IMG/VR virus record: IMGVR_UViG_3300045988_098930
DNA length: 64,000 nucleotides
Source of the DNA: a virus
Direction: 5' to 3' (one strand)
Shown here: positions 9,380 to 26,294 of the stretch, piece after piece
Layout: every line of letters begins with the position of its first letter
How positions within the stretch are numbered: position 1 is the first letter of the stretch
Program-made: the position numbers and the translations under genes
The notes under the pieces: generated by a model
The model's input: only the letters and a program-made list of their open reading frames with translations
What the model was told of the DNA's origin: nothing
Databases searched by the model: none

Positions 9380-9568
9380 TATGGTTATACTATATCACCG
9401 TTATATGGTTATGTCAACACTTTTGACTATTGCGTATACTTATATAGTACAGCGATATTGCACGATTTTATGCCGTTGCTATAAACGAAGGTTATATTAT
9501 GGTTATGTTGGGGGAATTTTTTTGTGTGTATGTGGGATTATAGTTATAATCCAAAGATTATGGCTATG
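9380..9568. repeat. iteron-like TATGG(T/C)TAT(A/G) direct repeats
   Basis: Copies at 9380..9389, 9404..9413, 9498..9507 and 9559..9568. A half-site GGTTAT lies at 9490..9495, and a related TATTGGTTATGG at 10598..10609. Confidence 0.5.
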
Positions 9569-10245: not shown

Positions 10246-10464
10246 GCCCACGCGGCGGAGCCGCGCTTGTCCAACCAGAAAAAGAACAAAACCCATTAGT
10301 CAAACAAACCAAGCCAAACACGGGCTGACCAACAGACAAGTCCCTTCTACGCTAATGTATAAACCAATCCTTTACCTTTATCTAAACCGAACCCCTTAGC
10401 TGCCGCTACCCAACCAAACCGCGCTCAAACGCCGCGAGGCTTATATAGGGGTAAGGGTAACTCC

Positions 10465-10493
10465 TTGACAACTCTTAGCTGGGCTTATATGAT
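10465..10493 (+). promoter_or_regulatory. sigma-A/sigma-70-type rightward promoter
   Basis: TTGACA (10465..10470), an exact 17-nt spacer, then TATGAT (10488..10493). It lies about 270 nt upstream of the first rightward gene. Confidence 0.55.
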
Positions 10494-10729
10494 AAGATGG
10501 CAAGTTGATAAGCACGTCTGATGAGATAAATCGTATGCTGACAACTGAATATAGGGAACGCAGCTCAAGTTTCCGTTTATATGGGAGGCGTGAGCTATAT
10601 TGGTTATGGGGTAGATGATGCAGGGGGTGGTATATATAACACGTTAAAAAGAGCGAAGCGAATATTAAATGTCTCTTATAGAGAGTACACCTAAAAAATG
10701 CTTATTTATCTACGTTTTTTGGGAGGCAT

Positions 10730-10758
10730 ATTAGGTGCTACCTAATAACCTAATTTTT
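10730..10758 (+). promoter_or_regulatory. leader hairpin / possible operator or attenuator
   Basis: ATTAGGT-GCT-ACCTAAT (10730..10746), then a second ACCTAAT copy and a T5 run, ending 10 nt before the RBS of 10769..12007. Confidence 0.35.
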
Positions 10759-10768
10759 AAGGGGGTAT

Positions 10769-12207: not shown

Positions 12208-12388
12208 GTAAACAATTCTCAGATTGGTGTTGTTGTTCGTAGCAGTAACAAGTGAATAGAGAGTGTGAATTTGCTCAAAGGGATGGACGTTTTGTTTGCG
12301 TTGTGCAAATAAAATGGTTCGTTCTGTTGTTAAGCGCACGATGAGGGCTATCCCCAGAATTGGGGATAGTGTATTTTTACGCGAAAAG
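12208..12388 (+). ncRNA. candidate ~180-nt non-coding transcript
   Basis: Bounded by the promoter-like element at 12173..12201 and the terminator at 12358..12388. I found no ORF with an RBS inside it. Confidence 0.3.
12358..12388 (+). terminator. intrinsic terminator (plus strand)
   Basis: CTATCCCCA-GAAT-TGGGGATAG (perfect 9-bp stem) followed by TGTATTTTT. Confidence 0.7.
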
Positions 12389-12467
12389 GAAGCAAGAAGG
12401 GTTAAGCCTATATATTGATGGCGCAAAATATACACTAATAATTTTAAGCAAAGCGAAAGGAATGACA

Positions 12468-13217
12468 ATGAACGAATTACAGATATTTAATAACAACCAG
12501 TTTGGAGAGATTAGGACTATTGAGGACAATGGTAAAGTGTTGTTCTGCGGAGCAGATGTAGCAAAAGCATTAGGTTATGCGAGGCCGAATGACGCTATAA
12601 CCGCACATTGTCGGTGTACGGTGAAATGCCGTATACCTCACCCGCAAGCCCCTGACAAGGAAATCGAGATGTCCTTTATCCCCGAAGGTGACGTTTATCG
12701 CCTTATCACGCATAGCAAACTTCCCACAGCGGAAAAGTTCGAAAGATGGGTGTTTGATGAAGTGCTGCCCACCATTCGCAAACATGGCGCGTATCTCACG
12801 CCAGAAGCATTAGAGCAGGCTATGAACGACCCTGACTTTGCCATTGGATTACTGACTGCGCTGAAGGATGAGCGGGAAAGTCGTAAAATAGCTGAAACTA
12901 AAGTCTCTATGCTGTCCGCTGAGGTCCTGACTTGGGCAGACCGGAAGGTGCTGAACGCTATCATGCGCAAGTACAGCTCTCAGGTGTATAACGCGGACTT
13001 TGCTAAAGGTTGGAACGCCTTCTATAAAGAACTGCTGTATAAACACGAGATCAACCTCAAGTCCCGTGCCACGCAGCGCATGAATCGCACGGGCAAAAAA
13101 CTGAGCTATTTGGACGCGCTTGCGGACGCCGAGCTGCCAGCCGCAATTAGTACCGCTGTGGCAATGTGCCATGAGCAAGATGTCAATATAGATGACATTA
13201 TCCAGAACGTTGCATGA
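12468..13217 (+). CDS. Bro-N domain antirepressor-family protein
   Basis: Track ORF 12360..13217 trimmed past the upstream terminator to the ATG at 12468 (alternative 12462) after GAAAGGA. LQIFNNNQFGEIRTIEDNGKVLFCGADVAKALGY matches the Bro-N pattern. Confidence 0.7.
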   Translation: MNELQIFNNNQFGEIRTIEDNGKVLFCGADVAKALGYARPNDAITAHCRCTVKCRIPHPQAPDKEIEMSFIPEGDVYRLITHSKLPTAEKFERWVFDEVLPTIRKHGAYLTPEALEQAMNDPDFAIGLLTALKDERESRKIAETKVSMLSAEVLTWADRKVLNAIMRKYSSQVYNADFAKGWNAFYKELLYKHEINLKSRATQRMNRTGKKLSYLDALADAELPAAISTAVAMCHEQDVNIDDIIQNVA

Positions 13218-20127: not shown

Positions 20128-20454
20128 TTGGAGGTACATACTTTCACGCATGAAAAATTCGGTCAGATACGTGCGGTGGTAGATGCAGGCAGGGTGTGGT
20201 ATTGCGGTGTAGATGTTAGTCGAGGGTTGGAGTTCAAGCAATATAAGATAGCAGTACGCGCCCATACTTTTGCTGATGAGTGTAAGTTGTTTGTGTTGCC
20301 GGACAAACACAATTATCCGCAGGAAACTAAGTGCATAAAGGAGGCGTGTGTGTATCGGCTGATACTGTATAGCAGTCGCAAGAGCTTGCAACAGTATGAG
20401 CGTTGGTTCACGCACACAGTGGTCAAAACTATGAAGGGATTTGAGGCACAATAA
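20128..20454 (+). CDS. stand-alone Bro-N domain protein
   Basis: TTG start 7 nt after AGGAGG. FTHEKFGQIRAVVDAGRVWYCGVDVSRGL matches the Bro-N pattern. Confidence 0.6.
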   Translation: MEVHTFTHEKFGQIRAVVDAGRVWYCGVDVSRGLEFKQYKIAVRAHTFADECKLFVLPDKHNYPQETKCIKEACVYRLILYSSRKSLQQYERWFTHTVVKTMKGFEAQ

Positions 20455-20626
20455 AACAGGATTATTATGACCACATAATTGATATGTGGCGTTATTTGGA
20501 GGAAGAATGGGACTATTGGGAGTACGGCGTGGTGGCGCAATGCTTTGCTGCGGCTGGTTCAAGTACGGAAAATGGAGGTGAGGACTGATTTTTGCGCCAC
20601 CTCTTTATACAGTCAGGTCTTTTTCT

Positions 20627-23137
20627 TTGCAATGGTTGGTTGACAACAATTTTTCGATAACAGAGCCGGAAGATGATTTAAGACATCTCATTAAACAACA
20701 GGACAACCCTCTGTTCCGTTTGATCCGCATTATTACACATGATAAAAGACGTTATAATCCTTATGTTATTTTTGTGAGCAGTGAAAGGTCTTGTAAGAGC
20801 GAAGAAAATATTCGGCATTTGGTTTATGAAGGTATTGTGGTCAATGGTCAGCGGTATGTGTTCAGTGAACGTTCTGCGTCTATGACTCGTACTGGTATAT
20901 TTAGTTTCGTAGACGCTCGTATAGCAGACGAGTTAAATAGGCGTATTACTATGGATATTACCTTTGATACAACGGTACTGTCCAAGTATTATGCCTATCG
21001 GGGTTTATTTTTCAGCTCGTGCCATTGTCTTGAGGGATGGCGGCCTAAGATTATTATAGTGCCGGATTTGACGTTGCCTGTTCCGCACCAGCACATAAAG
21101 TATCTATACGACTCTGAGGTGTCGTTTGTTGATAAAAATGGCAATGAGCGCACATGGAAACAGAAGGATATTGCAGAAACTACTCGTGATATGGAGATTA
21201 ACGCCTTTGACGGCTGTGGCATCCATCATCCTGACATTACTAAAGAGGTGACAGAGATATTGGGCGCTAAGTCCCCCGTCACCTCTATTCTCTGGCGTGC
21301 GCCGTATATCAAAGGCGTGTCTCATTCGGTAGACTATGAAACCTTTTTTGAGGAACGTGGTGTAGAGTATATCAAAGACATTTGGGGGCGGTGGCATAGC
21401 ATCCACGATAAAATGCTCATCTTCACCGAGAGTATGTACAAGGGTTTGAAATATTTCAAGCAATACGGTGATGGGCGCGATTGGGATAGGTATTGGGACT
21501 TATTTGAGAAATACGATCATTGTATCGGCATTGCAAAATGGAACTTCTCGTTCGCTGAAGAACCTTTGTTTACTCGCGCCAATTACCAGATATTGCAGGA
21601 TTTGGACTTGCCATATGACGATTTCCGCAGTTTGGCTGATGACAGTATTGAGTGGGCCGAGCGGATTGTTGGTGGCGATATGCTGTACACTTATTGCTTT
21701 TTGGGATTGATGGCTGATCGTTGCACGCCTATCAATGCGTACTCTAAAGCTATTCTGAAGAATCCTGAAATGATGAAAGAGCGGACTGTGCGCAAGTTTT
21801 TGCGTGATTCCGCTAAGAAGTATATAGATGGTATGAAGTGCGGCAAGCTATGGCTGGAATCGTGTTTTAAGTTTTTAGCTCCTGACCTTATCTTGCTGAT
21901 GGAGCATATTGGCGGTTTACCGTTGGTGGGGTCTTTACAGGCTGACGAGTTTTACTCTCGTGATTACGATGGTGTATATACGGGCGATTATCTCATTGAG
22001 AGAAATCCGCACATTTGCAGATCGGAGCATACTGTACTGCGTGCTGTGACCAATGACACGATTGATTATTATATCGGGCATCTTGCGAATGTCTGTATGG
22101 TAAATTGCCGGAGTTTGACAGCGCCACGTTTGAACGGAGCTGACTTCGATGGGGACTTGGTGCTTGTATTACAGAACTTCACAATGATGCGCGGTGTGCA
22201 TCGTGACGCGCCTATTGTAATAGATGTTGAGGACAAGATTACGGCAAAGATGGAGCCAGATAATTCAGAGGGGCGTTTAGCTCTAACTATGCGTACTATG
22301 AAGTCTCTCATTGGTGAATATAGTAATTATAGCAGTGCTTATCATAACAAATGTCCCAAAACTGATGAACAACGTGCGATATATGAAGGGTATATTGACC
22401 AAATTTCAGTCCTGACAGGTAAGGCAATCGATCAAGCTAAAACGGGCGTTATTTTCCCCATGCCGCGTCGTATTGCAAAATTTGGGCGACCTCTACCCTA
22501 TTTTATGAAATATCGCAAACCTTATTATGCGAAGCAGAAGCTCTCTAAGGCTCATAGTAATATGAACCGGCTTTGTTATGAGGTGGAACGCTGGCATAAA
22601 CAAATACGGTGGCAACGTTGTGAGAAATTCGATTATACAATTATGTTGGACAATACCATAGATGTGCCGGATGATATATTTAGCGTGATACGTGATATTT
22701 ATAAGCAATATACTGTTGAGATGAATAGTTTAATGCTTGAGCAGAAGCGGGTCCGTACATATCAGGACGAAGATATTAAGGCTCAGGTATCACGTTTCAA
22801 TGCTAAAAACTATGTTATAGACTGGGATGTATATTACGACAAATACCGTCAGCTCTGCCGAGAGGTTTGCCCCGATGCGAAGATGCTGGCTAATATAGCG
22901 GTACGTTTGCAGTACGAAGTGTATCCTAAAAGTGAGTCTCGTTTTATGTGGGTCGTGGCTGAGAAAGGGATTTTAGAGAATATCTGTCAGGTTGAACATT
23001 TGAAATTGCCGCAAAGAGATCCTTTTGGCGAGTATTGCTATTTGGGACGGCGTTATTCGATGGTAGAAGTTCAGACTACGCCTCCATGTGAGTGCGACGA
23101 TTTTAATGATTGGATTGGAGAGTGGCAATTTGATTAA
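20627..23137 (+). CDS. candidate single-chain two-barrel RNA polymerase (YonO / cellular-RdRP-like)
   Basis: 836-aa ORF. Motifs: RAPYIKG (aa 224-230, nt 21296..21316), RNPH (aa 459-462, from nt 22001) and NGADFDGD (aa 503-510, nt 22133..22156). The start is uncertain: TTG at 20627 has no SD, and the frame is open from 20582. Confidence 0.7.
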   Translation: MQWLVDNNFSITEPEDDLRHLIKQQDNPLFRLIRIITHDKRRYNPYVIFVSSERSCKSEENIRHLVYEGIVVNGQRYVFSERSASMTRTGIFSFVDARIADELNRRITMDITFDTTVLSKYYAYRGLFFSSCHCLEGWRPKIIIVPDLTLPVPHQHIKYLYDSEVSFVDKNGNERTWKQKDIAETTRDMEINAFDGCGIHHPDITKEVTEILGAKSPVTSILWRAPYIKGVSHSVDYETFFEERGVEYIKDIWGRWHSIHDKMLIFTESMYKGLKYFKQYGDGRDWDRYWDLFEKYDHCIGIAKWNFSFAEEPLFTRANYQILQDLDLPYDDFRSLADDSIEWAERIVGGDMLYTYCFLGLMADRCTPINAYSKAILKNPEMMKERTVRKFLRDSAKKYIDGMKCGKLWLESCFKFLAPDLILLMEHIGGLPLVGSLQADEFYSRDYDGVYTGDYLIERNPHICRSEHTVLRAVTNDTIDYYIGHLANVCMVNCRSLTAPRLNGADFDGDLVLVLQNFTMMRGVHRDAPIVIDVEDKITAKMEPDNSEGRLALTMRTMKSLIGEYSNYSSAYHNKCPKTDEQRAIYEGYIDQISVLTGKAIDQAKTGVIFPMPRRIAKFGRPLPYFMKYRKPYYAKQKLSKAHSNMNRLCYEVERWHKQIRWQRCEKFDYTIMLDNTIDVPDDIFSVIRDIYKQYTVEMNSLMLEQKRVRTYQDEDIKAQVSRFNAKNYVIDWDVYYDKYRQLCREVCPDAKMLANIAVRLQYEVYPKSESRFMWVVAEKGILENICQVEHLKLPQRDPFGEYCYLGRRYSMVEVQTTPPCECDDFNDWIGEWQFD

Positions 23138-23735
23138 CGAGCGTTTGGAAGCTCGGCAATTTATTGAGGGCAACAACCTTAATAAACGGTGTGTATATCA
23201 TATTTGTTATATTATGGCTAAATATTATCGGGATGACGGGTTGAGCCATGAAGCCATTCGCGAAAGGCTAAAAGAGTGGGAAGGTAAATACGGTTATTAT
23301 TTCGAGTTTGATGTAAACAAGGTTATATATAATGTGATGGATAGCAGGACTCCCCTTCGTGGGGATGTCCCTGTTTTTATCAATACAACAGATATTGAAG
23401 AAATACGTAAACGGTTTGATAGCAAAAATACGCGACTGCTGGCGTTGGCGTTACTGGCGTATGGCAAAGCGTGCGCTAACAAGTATGGTGACTGTAATGT
23501 GTCGTTGCTGGGCGTGGCTAATTGGCTGCACGTTGACTACTCTAATCTTGTCAATCGCAGCTTTAAGGAATTGATAGACTTTGGGTATATTGCTCGTGTA
23601 GACACTAAAAAGAAATGGATTAAGAGCAGCCGTAACCAAGTCACACGCATACATTTTAACGTGCCGTTGGTGAATACCGGCGACAATCGCGTGATGGATA
23701 ACAACATTGTGCGGATATTTAATGAATATTTTTAG
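23130..23735 (+). CDS. putative winged-helix DNA-binding protein
   Basis: Track ORF 23088..23735 trimmed to the TTG at 23130, 7 nt after GGAGAG. The C-terminal LLGVANWLHVDYSNLVNRSFKELIDFGYIARV looks like a wHTH recognition unit (inference). Confidence 0.5.
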   Translation: MINERLEARQFIEGNNLNKRCVYHICYIMAKYYRDDGLSHEAIRERLKEWEGKYGYYFEFDVNKVIYNVMDSRTPLRGDVPVFINTTDIEEIRKRFDSKNTRLLALALLAYGKACANKYGDCNVSLLGVANWLHVDYSNLVNRSFKELIDFGYIARVDTKKKWIKSSRNQVTRIHFNVPLVNTGDNRVMDNNIVRIFNEYF

Positions 23736-23768
23736 CCTAAAGGGTTTAATGGGTACTAATATAATCTC

Positions 23769-23800
23769 AGTCAAACAAAATAGTCAAATTAAGTAGTCAC
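23769..23800 (+). repeat. three AGTCA(A/C) direct repeats at 13-nt spacing
   Basis: AGTCAAA at 23769, AGTCAAA at 23782 and AGTCAC at 23795. A TATAAT lies about 15 nt upstream (TACTAATATAATCTC). Confidence 0.5.
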
Positions 23801-23847
23801 GACGGGGTTAAGCGGTATCTAATTTTTGAGCTAAAGGATGGTTGTAT

Positions 23848-24018
23848 TTGATTAACATTACCCGTGAAGAATCCCTTTATTTACGTCAGCATGGCGCACA
23901 AGTTGTTGTGCTGAACAAGCAGGCCCCCGCCCGTAAGAAGAAGTATATGGTTCCTGAAGACCGTCTGACGGCGCGGTTGCTTGACCAGTATCATAGGGAG
24001 CAAAAACGGCATGGTTGA
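23848..24018 (+). CDS. small basic protein (56 aa)
   Basis: Below the track cutoff. TTG at 23848 lies 8 nt after AAAGGA. Hand translation: (M)INITREESLYLRQHGAQVVVLNKQAPARKKKYMVPEDRLTARLLDQYHREQKRHG. Confidence 0.45.
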   Translation: MINITREESLYLRQHGAQVVVLNKQAPARKKKYMVPEDRLTARLLDQYHREQKRHG

Positions 24019-25207
24019 TTTAAGACGGCGCTCTGACGAGCTTTTGGACGAAGAATATCTGTACCGCATCGGCAAGGCTAAAGATGATGGCTTGATTGCC
24101 GAAACGTGGGAGGAATTAACCCCCGTGCTGAACGAGGAGTGCGGGGAAGAAAAAGGCCCTTGCACATGGCGTAAGCATTACGCCAGTGGCAAGAAGTGGC
24201 AAGCCGTATTCGCCAAACAGGGGTGCATTGAAGATGTTGCGGCGTTGCGGGAAAGGCAACAAGGAATTGCCAAGGAACGTATAAAACTGCGCGATGAGCG
24301 CACCGCTTTAAATAAAGAACTGCGAGAACAGGCGAGATATGAGGTCAACAATGAGCTATGGGAGCGTAAGCTGGCAGAGCTGGGTCAGACTAAGTTCCCT
24401 GTGGTGGCAGTGCCACAGCTTGATGGTGACTGCTCTCTGTTAATCTGTCTGAGTGACTGGCATATTGGGATGACCTTTAATAGCTGTACTGGTCAATATG
24501 ATACAGATATTGCATGGAATCGTTTGTCTCAATTATTATGCCAAATTCGGGACATTCAACAGCGGCACAATGTCGCTTCTGCTCATATTGTATTGCTGGG
24601 TGATTTAATAAGCGGCGCACCTCATCCTGTTGTCGCAATGCAGAACCGTGAAGACGTTGTGGATCAGGTTATACTTGCCGGTGAAATGTTGGCTCAATTT
24701 ATATACAACATTTCAATGTTGTTTACCAACGTGTATGTTACTGCTGTAAATGGTAATCATAGTCGGCTCACCCCCAATAAAAAGGACGCTATCATTGGTG
24801 AACGCTTAGATAGGCTGGTTACATGGCACGCGACCACTGAATGTAAACACTTGCCCAATGTGAGTATTAGTCAACCTTTAGATGGGTTCCATGGCACGCT
24901 GGACATAATTGAGATTCGTGGCAAGTCGTATGTGCTTGACCACGGAGACTTCGACCAGTTTACTGAGGCTGGTGTTGCTAAGTTAATCTCTTATTTGGGC
25001 TTTGTGCCGAACGCAATAATCTCTGCGCACAAGCATACCCCAGCATATATGGAAGTAAATAGTGTCGCCTGTGTGCAGAACGGTTGTCTGTCGGGTGGTG
25101 GCGATCAATTTACGTTGGAACACCGTCTGGGCGGTAAGCCGTCGCAAACTGTATGTGTGTGCTCAGATGCGGGCATCGAAGTTATGTATCCGATTAAACT
25201 GATATAG
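24011..25207 (+). CDS. calcineurin-like metallophosphoesterase (Mre11/SbcD-type motif set)
   Basis: Track ORF 23981..25207 trimmed to the ATG at 24011. Motifs in order: LSDWHIG, LLGDLISG, VNGNHSR, LDHGDF, SAHKHTP. A ~130-aa coiled-coil-like N-terminal extension precedes them. Confidence 0.7.
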   Translation: MVDLRRRSDELLDEEYLYRIGKAKDDGLIAETWEELTPVLNEECGEEKGPCTWRKHYASGKKWQAVFAKQGCIEDVAALRERQQGIAKERIKLRDERTALNKELREQARYEVNNELWERKLAELGQTKFPVVAVPQLDGDCSLLICLSDWHIGMTFNSCTGQYDTDIAWNRLSQLLCQIRDIQQRHNVASAHIVLLGDLISGAPHPVVAMQNREDVVDQVILAGEMLAQFIYNISMLFTNVYVTAVNGNHSRLTPNKKDAIIGERLDRLVTWHATTECKHLPNVSISQPLDGFHGTLDIIEIRGKSYVLDHGDFDQFTEAGVAKLISYLGFVPNAIISAHKHTPAYMEVNSVACVQNGCLSGGGDQFTLEHRLGGKPSQTVCVCSDAGIEVMYPIKLI

Positions 25208-25302
25208 TTTCATACCGCTTTCGTCTGTTGAACGATTCGCGGTTTTGGGTTGAGTATGTTCAACTCTCTCCCTCCTATTGTGGCGAAATGCCATATAATT
25301 GA

Positions 25303-25339
25303 GGGCGCTATGTATGGCGGGCAGACTCCCGCCGCGCCC
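25303..25339 (+). promoter_or_regulatory. GC-rich compound hairpin upstream of the Bro/ANT gene
   Basis: Outer stem GGGCGC (25303..25308) pairs with GCGCCC (25334..25339). Inner stem GGCGGG (25316..25321) pairs with CCCGCC (25328..25333). TATAAT at 25294..25299 lies just upstream. Confidence 0.35.
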
Positions 25340-25361
25340 TCCTATTCTGAAGGAGGAAAAA

Positions 25362-26168
25362 TTGACTACTGATATACAGATTTTTAAGAATGAACAGTTC
25401 GGCCAGATTCGCACTTTAGTCGAAAATGATAAGGTGCTATTTTGTGGTTCTGACATAGCAAGGGCATTGGGGTACGCACGTCCCAGTGAAGCGGTCGCTA
25501 CCCATGCAAAGGGTACGGTAAAACGGCGTACCCTTACTAATGGTGGCGAACAAGAGATGGGGTTTATTACTGAGGGCGATGTGTATCGCTTAATAATACG
25601 TAGCAAACTCCCTGCTGCCGAGCATTTTGAACGTTGGGTTTTTGATGAGGTGCTTCCTGCTATCCGCAAGACCGGAATGTACGCTACTCCCGCCACTGTG
25701 GAAGCTATGTTGGCTAATCCAGATACCATGATTCAGGTGTTGCAGGCATTTAAAGATGAACGCGAACAGCGCTTGGCTTTGGAGACAAGGGTTGTAGCGG
25801 ATGCGCCCAAAGTAGCGTTCGCTGATGCTGTGGAAACGTCTACCGACAGTTGCCTTGTGGGGCAGTTGGCAAAGATAATACGTCAGAACGGATATGAGAT
25901 CGGTGCGAATAGATTGTTTGAGTATTTGCGCAAAGACGGCTATCTTTGTAGGGTTGGTAGTAATCGTAATATGCCGACCCAGCGCAGCATGGAAGCTGGC
26001 TGGTTTGAGGTCAAAGAAAGTGTTCTTGAGAACCCCGATGGCAGTATTCGTGTAGTGCGGACTCCGAAAGTCACCGGTAAGGGTCAAATCTATTTTGTGA
26101 ATAAATTTCTTCGTCCAGAGGCAGTGAGGTCGGAATCGGCTTCCGGCACACGTGAAGGCACTATATGA
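25362..26168 (+). CDS. Bro-N plus KilAC/ANT-type antirepressor
   Basis: Track ORF 25299..26168 trimmed to the TTG at 25362, 6 nt after GAAGGAGG. The Bro-N half is IQIFKNEQFGQIRTLVENDKVLFCGSDIARALGY. The C-terminal half (VGQLAKIIRQNGYEIGANRLFEYLRKDGYL) is typical of ANT/KilAC. Confidence 0.7.
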   Translation: MTTDIQIFKNEQFGQIRTLVENDKVLFCGSDIARALGYARPSEAVATHAKGTVKRRTLTNGGEQEMGFITEGDVYRLIIRSKLPAAEHFERWVFDEVLPAIRKTGMYATPATVEAMLANPDTMIQVLQAFKDEREQRLALETRVVADAPKVAFADAVETSTDSCLVGQLAKIIRQNGYEIGANRLFEYLRKDGYLCRVGSNRNMPTQRSMEAGWFEVKESVLENPDGSIRVVRTPKVTGKGQIYFVNKFLRPEAVRSESASGTREGTI

Positions 26169-26258
26169 TGCTCGATGGATATAGGCTGGGTGTCCTTAAC
26201 CACCCACCATTAGCGATTGCGAGGGTCTTCTTTCCCTTTCACCCTTGCATACGAAACG

Positions 26259-26294
26259 GGGCAGCTTTCATTTGGCTGCCCTGTTTTTGTGTTT
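26259..26294 (+). terminator. intrinsic terminator (plus strand)
   Basis: GGGCAGC (26259..26265) pairs with GCTGCCC (26275..26281), followed by TGTTTTTGTGTTT. Confidence 0.7.

Follow-up and report, generated by a model that had tools for sequence, protein, structure and literature searches.

We describe a gene in the 64,000-nucleotide viral DNA IMGVR_UViG_3300045988_098930 (IMG/VR), which is referred to below, at its full length, as the window. This gene quite likely encodes a single-polypeptide two-barrel RNA polymerase (RNAP) of the YonO family, and we infer that it serves the phage as a DNA-dependent transcriptase of the late genes. All the sequence and fold criteria examined place the predicted polymerase in the YonO family and in Pfam PF05183. 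The YonO family itself is not new (2003-2017), and genes like this one have already been deposited from other phages: related Clostridia phages carry such genes, which are mislabelled "RNA-dependent". The new elements are the large extent of the gut-Clostridia clade, the correction of the start to a non-canonical codon, a coupled partner gene and a promoter candidate obtained by comparison.

Family assignment and predicted fold

The open reading frame 20627..23137 (+), in which an earlier note on this DNA had recognized a candidate polymerase, is present, and its product is 836 amino acids (aa) long when read from TTG. The protein matches the Pfam RdRP family PF05183 (E=8.6e-15, 54.9 bits, gathering cut-off 23.8) between aa 55-638, the match spanning positions 51-573 of the 582 in the profile, and PHROG 8308, a family of unknown function (E=9e-73). 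No multisubunit RNAP domains were found in the Pfam scan of the polymerase, and the protein, a single chain of 849 aa with the start proposed below, is not a beta or beta-prime subunit of the multisubunit type. The indexed protein search yielded 555 homologs, all carrying PF05183, one of which, at 99% identity, represents 397 member sequences, and an exhaustive search of the 50%-identity representatives gave 1385 clusters with E<=0.001. Megablast found no match among the phage records. With tblastn, 40 genomes in these records were matched, including an unannotated gut phage fragment (46% identity), the Thomasclavelia phages TR-TP1 and TR-TP2 (42%, annotated "RNA-dependent RNA polymerase"), Enterocloster phages (about 27%) and 26 SPbeta-type Bacillus phages, among which is yonO itself (E=3e-20).

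The BLASTP alignment with YonO of the Bacillus subtilis phage SPbeta (E=2e-26, 24% identity, 641 aligned columns) covers both barrels and keeps every motif in register: NAFDGCG faces HTDGCG, RAPYIKG faces RLPWVKG, ERNPH faces LRSPH and GADFDGD faces QFDNDGD. The homology with YonO suspected in the earlier note therefore extends over both barrels, and the similarity in size that it had pointed out is close (839 aa in YonO and 849 aa in the window protein).

Structure comparison was needed because searches against the PDB sequences gave nothing useful: phmmer returned no relevant match for the polymerase and the profile search reached QDE-1 at E=0.66 only. The AlphaFold2 model of the polymerase, which was built on 63 homologs, has a mean predicted local distance difference test score (pLDDT) of 90.1 and a predicted template modelling score (pTM) of 0.86, and shows clusters of beta-strands around both motif groups. 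The top matches of the model in the PDB (Foldseek) are QDE-1 and RDR2 (E=4e-22 to 2e-19, template modelling score (TM) about 0.5, 830-970 alignment columns; PDB 2j7n, 7y7p, 7rqs, and 7w82), followed by gp62 of the phage P74-26 (E=7e-7), the beta-prime-type (largest) subunits of multisubunit RNAPs (E about 1e-4 to 1e-3, TM 0.07-0.11) and gp66 of the crAss-like phage phi14:2 (E=5e-3). Among predicted viral structures, two metagenomic phage proteins named "RNA dependent RNA polymerases" match best (E about 4e-40). The model has the fold of the QDE-1/RDR cellular-type polymerases, in line with the expectation of the earlier note, and its superposition on QDE-1/RDR2 suggests that two double-psi beta-barrels face one active site. 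No solved YonO structure was found in the PDB sequence and Foldseek searches.

Active-site residues

Eight residues, namely four Asp, two Arg, one Lys, and one Pro, are invariant in all two-barrel polymerases and correspond in QDE-1 to D709, R738, K743, R962, P964, D1007, D1009, and D1011 (PMC2919709, Ruprich-Robert and Thuriaux). The window protein has all eight: D208, R237, K242, R472, P474, D519, D521, and D523 (active-site residues are numbered on the 849-aa protein). They are invariant in 63 close sequences and fall within the 24 invariant columns of an alignment of 26 family members, YonO included, with identities down to 21%. The three motifs listed in the earlier note (RAPYIKG, RNPH, and NGADFDGD) were each found, in that order and at exactly the coordinates given in Table 1, when the sequence was re-read. 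The note had overlooked the fourth catalytic Asp, D208 in the NAFDGCG motif of barrel 1 (D195 in the numbering of the 836-aa product), which is also invariant over the 26 sequences.

The spacing between these residues is nearly the same as in QDE-1: the distance from the barrel-1 Asp to the Arg is 29 residues and that from the Arg to the Lys is 5 residues in both proteins, and the second Arg precedes the first Asp of the triad by 47 residues in the window protein vs 45 in QDE-1. The likening of R-x-x-x-x-K-G to the barrel loop of the beta subunit is thus sustained, this pair being equivalent to R738/K743 of QDE-1 and K979/K987 of Rpb2 (PMC2919709), as is that of the RNP element to cellular RNA-dependent RNA polymerases, where it is equivalent to R962/P964 of QDE-1 (PMC2919709) and R446/P448 of Rpb1. 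The NGADFDGD loop, which is invariant in the family, does resemble the NADFDGD loop of beta-prime, and it is aligned with FDNDGD in YonO and GGDYDGD in QDE-1. After the second barrel, the GKAIDQAKTG motif is aligned with GNLVDQSKQG in QDE-1. The two-metal active site is complete, barrel 1 providing D208 and barrel 2 the triad D519/D521/D523, and the basic residues that hold the nucleoside triphosphate and the RNA 3' end (R237, K242, and R472) are present, along with P474.

Table 1. Features of the polymerase gene, the adjacent late region and the divergent early region of the window (positions in nucleotides, nt)
Feature	Position	Strand	Remarks
Sigma-70-type promoter matches (two), 11/12, facing outward	9389-9417; 10465-10493	-; +	At the divergent region and GC-skew minimum
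Shine-Dalgarno sequence GGAGG	20574..20578	+	9 nt upstream of ATT; read from the sequence
YonO-like single-chain two-barrel RNA polymerase gene, revised (predicted)	20588..23137	+	ATT start, 849 aa
D208 in NAFDGCG, fourth metal-binding Asp, barrel 1	21209..21211	+	Equivalent to QDE-1 D709 / Rpb2 D837 (PMC2919709)
R237-A-P-Y-I-K242-G, basic loop of barrel 1	21296..21316	+	R237 and K242 invariant; aligned to YonO RLPWVKG
R472-N-P474-H	22001..22012	+	Invariant; aligned to YonO RSPH
N-G-A-D519-F-D521-G-D523, catalytic Mg-binding loop, barrel 2	22133..22156	+	Invariant
G-K-A-I-D615-Q-A-K618-T-G, conserved helix motif after barrel 2	22418..22447	+	D615 and K618 invariant
p201, conserved 201-aa protein, candidate DNA-binding partner	23130..23735	+	TTG start; 8-nt overlap with the end of the polymerase gene, stop codon included
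TTAATGGGTACTAATAT, window variant of the conserved motif T[AT]TATG[GA]ATACTA	23746..23762	+	From comparison with other lineages
Three AGTCA repeats, exact 13-bp period (23769, 23782, 23795)	23769..23799	+	Array unique in the window
GGTATCTAAT, second element downstream of the repeats	23814..23823	+	Common to L003, L004, and L035
yonK-like small gene, 58 aa, first after the candidate promoter	23842..24018	+	Conserved in L003 (48%) and L035 (56%)
YonJ-like metallophosphatase/exonuclease	24011..25207	+	PHROG 284 'exonuclease' (2e-52); tblastn to SPbeta yonJ, 23% identity

Start codon of the gene

The earlier note had found the start of the gene odd, and rightly so: no Shine-Dalgarno (SD) sequence precedes the TTG at 20627, and since the nearest in-frame stop codon upstream is a TGA at 20579-81, the frame is open from 20582, with CTG (20585) and ATT (20588) upstream of the TTG. 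Judging from the comparison of the sequences, the protein is probably 849 aa long and starts at AUU (20588). The N-termini of the homologs read MFAPPLYxVR[KS]FPL, and the window frame upstream of TTG 20627 reads G-L-I-F-A-P-P-L-Y-T-V-R-S-F-S-L. The 13 extra N-terminal residues (FAPPLYTVRSFSL) therefore align with those of the homologs, where they are conserved down to 42% identity, and ATT 20588 is aligned exactly with the homologs' ATG. This ATT is kept in nine contigs of the clade originating from several samples, and the extension shows one synonymous change (CCA>CCG). The layout in which an SD sequence is followed after 9 nt by AT[T/A] recurs in four lineages, including L031/L063, L046/47/49, and L003 (the related loci are cited here by their numbers).

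The codon present at the start position was determined in 75 related IMG/VR loci, where it is ATG in 46 cases, TTG in 11, ATT in nine, ATA in five, and GTG and CTG in two each. In L031/L063, ATT is the only possible start, since there is an in-frame stop three codons upstream and the intervening TTA and AAC are not start codons. ATA stands in place of ATG at this position in L003, and YonO itself begins with TTG. Because of these non-canonical start codons, gene callers shorten the protein by 7-16 residues. Non-canonical starts at the position of the homologs' ATG were also noted in L032/L033, in addition to L003, L031/L063, and L046/47/49.

It is considerably less probable that translation starts elsewhere, either at TTG 20627 (giving 836 aa), at CTG 20585 or at ATG 20572 combined with a +1 frameshift on TTT_T. 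The TTG was chosen by gene callers for the near-identical protein P0001, but it has no SD sequence before it and the 13 residues upstream are conserved in the homologs. CTG 20585 lies 6 nt after GGAGG, and an out-of-frame upstream ATG, as a frameshift start would require, occurs in the window, in L003 and in L031; the recurrence of ATT or ATA at the 9-nt SD spacing in four lineages and the lack of any alternative start in L031/L063 speak against all these starts. The frameshift was rejected: the upstream ATGs have SD spacings of 0-4 nt only, and no stop codon or canonical slippery site was found in support of it.

Insertions in the homologous genes

Many of the homologous polymerase genes are interrupted by insertions of 250-1200 nt, which often change the reading frame and occur at two hot spots, inside the NGADFDGD motif and at GKAIDxAKTG. 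They were delimited in L035 (11557-11810 and 12100-12444) and in L052 (11851-13007), and further insertions are carried by L041, L044, L049, L054, L059, L061, L065, L069, and L074. Two of the insertions matched an Rfam group I intron model over its full length (E=4e-9 and 1e-6), below the gathering score, so the polymerase homologs appear to be hot spots for putative group I introns. The polymerase gene of the window is uninterrupted, and the Rfam scan of the window gave no match.

Genomic context and the case for late transcription

The window carries the genes of a long-tailed phage, among them that of a 1973-aa tape measure protein, in which a PhageMin_Tail domain was recognized, and those of a Prophage_tail protein, a portal protein (PHROG 2739) and a large terminase. 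The genes are oriented leftward from position 1 to about 9.2 kb and rightward from about 9.3 kb. The polymerase gene is located at the end of the rightward early/middle block, and every gene from there onward is on the + strand. Downstream of it come p201, a 58-aa gene, a YonJ-like metallophosphatase gene, an Ant/Bro moron, unknown and fibre-like genes, a YonG-like gene, and the terminase and portal genes. The YonJ_N and YonG_N domains were taken from precomputed Pfam matches on the identical genes of L001, and YonV_C and YonB matches occur in relatives. The 58-aa gene resembles yonK, which directly precedes yonJ in SPbeta, and an analogous 73-aa gene is present in L017. The order of the genes is the same as in SPbeta (yonO, yonN, yonK, yonJ, ..., yonG, yonF, yonE, ..., yonB).

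YonO is a strict DNA-dependent RNAP with a strong preference for DNA templates. It is processive yet error-prone, and is inactive when its Asp triad is altered (PMC5467207, Forrest et al. 2017). It is needed for phage production and accounts for 37 late genes, which form one operon and share a single start site ahead of yonK, and the late transcripts of SPbeta are abolished when yonO is deleted; which promoter it uses and whether it requires a cofactor were questions left open (PMC5467207). The window protein is like YonO in being a single chain of nearly equal size, with the motifs DGCG, R-x-P-x-x-KG, R-x-PH, and DxDGD in the same order, and its gene is likewise phage-encoded, starts with a codon other than ATG and lies just upstream of a co-oriented late block containing yonK, yonJ, yonG, terminase, and portal genes. 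The two systems differ in their hosts (Bacillus in the case of YonO and a gut Clostridia-type bacterium in that of the window phage) and in the gene following the polymerase, which encodes the HU-like YonN in SPbeta vs p201 in the window. They also differ in the interval preceding yonK, where a roughly 1.7-kb non-coding stretch in SPbeta contrasts with 106 bp containing 13-bp repeats in the window. Because the gene order matches that of SPbeta, the best reading is that the window protein is a DNA-dependent late transcriptase, a role to which the homology, the intact active site and the conserved gene order all point.

By analogy with YonO, the host polymerase would transcribe the window polymerase gene within the rightward early/middle operon, and the protein would then work as a DNA-dependent RNA polymerase on the long rightward late operon, comprising the yonK/yonJ-like, yonG-like, terminase, portal, capsid and tail genes and that of the 1973-aa tape measure. 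The weak AUU start would keep the level of the enzyme low. Initiation would most likely take place in the 106-bp gap 23736-23841. The co-inherited p201 might bind the 13-bp-spaced repeats and recruit or gate the polymerase. No strong sigma-70-like site was detected between 17.5 and 37.4 kb (35 found vs 38 expected, none above 10/12), which is consistent with this reading. The host-type promoters that the earlier note had ascribed to the early arms find modest support: two 11/12 matches lie in the divergent region at ~9.4-10.5 kb, and 50 sites were found vs 37 +/- 7 expected.

It is very unlikely that the enzyme is a true RNA-dependent RNA polymerase, copying or amplifying phage or host RNAs instead of transcribing DNA. 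Its best Pfam and structure matches are indeed QDE-1 and RDR2, which have the same eight active-site residues and the post-barrel G-x-x-x-D-x-x-K-x-G, and related phage genes, several of them in GenBank, are annotated 'RNA-dependent RNA polymerase'. These annotations have been carried over from the family name, however, and YonO, the only characterised bacterial or phage member, strongly prefers DNA (PMC5467207). QDE-1 and RDR2 show 13-15% identity with the window protein and are eukaryotic enzymes that act in RNA silencing on RNA templates in vivo, whereas the window gene belongs to a phage and heads a late structural operon that is syntenic with that of SPbeta. QDE-1 has, moreover, also been crystallised with DNA templates, according to the titles of PDB entries 7y7r, 7y7s, and 7y7t.

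Even less credit can be given to a virion-packaged polymerase, injected with the DNA to transcribe the early genes as in N4, the crAss-like phages and P23-45. The fold is related to those of phi14:2 gp66 and the polymerases of the P23-45 family (PMC10770324), but the window protein is far closer to YonO, which is expressed after induction (PMC5467207). No structural protein is joined to it, no polymerase motif occurs in the tape measure protein, and good host-type promoters are available in the early arms. A polymerase domain hidden in the tape measure was also considered and rejected, as the protein contains a chance DVDAD only, with no supporting Pfam match. The polymerases of P23-45/P74-26 (PDB 8f5m; PMC10770324) and phi14:2 (gp66, PDB 6vr4) are single-chain phage two-barrel RNAPs too, with promoter motifs of their own, and P74-26 gp62 is a non-virion two-barrel RNAP of a Thermus phage (PMC10770324). 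They are far more distant from the window protein than QDE-1 or YonO, no sequence-level match with them being found in the PDB sequence and profile searches, and they differ in being fused to or packaged with virion proteins or in transcribing early genes. The multisubunit enzymes resemble the window protein in the metal-binding loop and have in common with it the R-x-P element and both basic residues in the beta-type barrel. They differ in that the window protein has both barrels in one chain, and the barrels alone align.

The p201 gene

The gene directly following the polymerase gene encodes p201, and a homolog (26-61% identity) occupies this place in 49 of the 80 distinct loci. It most likely starts at TTG 23130, with which the MINE... 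start of the homologs is aligned and upstream of which GGAGAG occurs at a distance of 8 nt. No Pfam or PHROG family could be assigned to p201. Its structural model (pLDDT 84.6) gave weak fold matches, with a best E of 0.04, but those with a probability of about 0.75 or more are nearly all winged-helix DNA-binding domains (the matches include CadC, CzrA, CodY, MarR, and TubR, with RepE at a lower probability, 0.47), and Pfam HTH_36 was matched below threshold in six of 14 members of the p201 family. On the basis of the model, p201 is possibly a winged-helix protein.

A candidate late promoter

The 106-bp gap between p201 and the yonK-like gene contains, in this order, TTAATGGGTACTAATAT, three AGTCA repeats, GGTATCTAAT, and the SD sequence and TTG of the yonK-like gene. 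Most lineages share the motif T[AT]TATG[GA]ATACTA just upstream of the repeats, and ATGGGTAC is the core of its counterpart in the window. At least 13 other lineages have three to five direct repeats in the same place with the same 13-bp period and differing units: TAGTCA in L003, TTTTAAAGTTGCA in L004, TTTTCATTTGA in L013, TGATTCATTTTAC in L015, AATGTTTACACAA in L032, TTATCACG in L035, TATGTGCATATT in L046, and TTTTGACAAGA in L095.

The two elements were counted in the 49 distinct loci with p201, in 31 loci without it and in 2816 control windows. A period of 13 is the top periodicity, with a match fraction >=0.69, in 16/49 loci with p201, 0/31 without it and 18/2816 controls (0.64%). The core ATGRRTACT is found in 22/49, 1/31, and 38/2816 (1.3%), respectively, and in the 22 p201-bearing loci it is in + orientation and 580-920 nt downstream of the polymerase stop codon. 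In L003 (13135-13215) and L004 (9609-9700), the 13-bp array stands between TGGATAC in the upstream motif and its reverse complement GTATCCA in the downstream element, the two making up an inverted repeat; in the window (23746-23823) and in L035 they agree imperfectly (5/7).

The YonO start site of SPbeta (published genome coordinate 2225998) could be placed as a primer-extension interval only, at 14928-15169 of L005. This P_YonO interval contains AATAGTCATTT, which is identical to the repeat unit of L003, a match length reached in 5/500 shuffles. It is itself contained in the yonN-yonK interval of SPbeta (L005 14667-16349), about 1.7 kb without any annotated gene, in which TAGTC occurs twice at an 11-nt spacing (15041 and 15052). 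The 18-nt consensus of the upstream motif, with up to three mismatches, gave no match in the window or in the P_YonO region of SPbeta.

We tentatively propose that the gap region is a candidate late promoter, with p201 as its lineage-specific DNA-binding partner. A broader proposal, which is likewise speculative, is that the YonO-type polymerases of the gut-Clostridia clade need p201: this fast-evolving, translationally coupled and putatively winged-helix protein would bind the co-varying repeats and deliver the polymerase to T[AT]TATG[GA]ATACTA as the conserved core of the single late promoter, and the AUU, AUA, or CUG starts would keep the enzyme scarce.

Several points weigh against the late-transcriptase reading and this promoter model. 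The identity with YonO is 24% only, Pfam PF05183 is named for RNA-dependent enzymes, and a strong terminator-like site, a hairpin with a 14-bp stem followed by a run of T (26253-26287, +), lies inside the proposed single late transcript. The fold matches of p201 are not significant, SPbeta has no p201 homolog, and a clade in which an unrelated 271-aa protein follows the polymerase has no 13-bp repeats. The motif copy of the window departs from the others at an otherwise invariant base and was not among the eight best-scoring sites in the window when a weight matrix trained on the relatives was used; the repeat array of the window is the weakest of the set, with AGTCA alone shared and a match fraction of 0.65; and no clear copy of the upstream motif was found in SPbeta.

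The polymerase, p201 and the 13-bp repeats might instead constitute a replication module, in which a winged-helix initiator binds iterons beside its own gene and the polymerase primes or activates an origin, although we regard this as very unlikely. The pairing of iterons with an adjacent winged-helix gene is a typical trait of replication initiators, the weak fold matches of p201 include RepE and TubR, and HTH_36 is matched below threshold; but a 13-bp period is short for plasmid-type iterons. The minimum of the GC skew lies at 9-10 kb and not at 23.7 kb, the repeats are placed where SPbeta has its YonO start site, upstream of yonK, and the loss of yonO abolishes late transcripts in that phage (PMC5467207). 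An origin at the repeats was rejected, as no skew inflection is seen there, and so was a pac site, since that of SPbeta is upstream of yonP/yonO, between yonR and yonP. A full-text search for YonO from 2021 onward gave almost exclusively unrelated papers and, in the library searched, no later work on the YonO promoter, and the polymerase homolog of PMBT24 is not discussed in the paper on its genome.

Other features of the window and its host

The cumulative GC-skew minimum coincides with the two outward-facing promoter matches and a 440-bp gene-free gap (10329-10768), and the divergent region is probably an early control region or origin. Three genes with a Bro-N domain are present (12360-13217, 20128-20454, and 25299-26168, +), one of which also has a KilAC/ANT domain and one of which is immediately upstream of the polymerase gene. 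The terminator-like hairpin lies directly after the Ant/Bro gene, and the Ant region is mosaic (63-99% identity) among relatives that are otherwise 99% identical. A gene encoding a PIN domain and a PhoH-like ATPase (45633-46856, +) lies among the structural genes, midway through their module and immediately ahead of the tape measure block.

A genome scan with peptides specific to the window protein gave no match, and a second scan yielded relatives at 56% identity or less only. Since the relatives at 49-56% identity were found in the genomes of Diplocloster, Anaerolentibacter, Faecalibacillus, and Christensenella and in metagenome-assembled genomes of Oscillospiraceae and Lachnospiraceae, the host is probably a gut member of the Bacillota (Clostridia-type).

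Significance for the YonO family

Among the known relatives of the universal multisubunit RNA polymerase, those of the YonO type are the simplest, and, to our knowledge, a single one of them has been studied so far. The family is abundant in phages and prophages of human-gut Clostridia. The gene is usually mislabelled "RNA-dependent", and that of the window is probably called 13 residues too short. If the promoter model is true, it would provide the first promoter architecture and the first specificity factor for any YonO-like enzyme. The comparative data amount to a concrete, testable proposal as to where and how such a polymerase may initiate, which bears on the question left open in the case of YonO.

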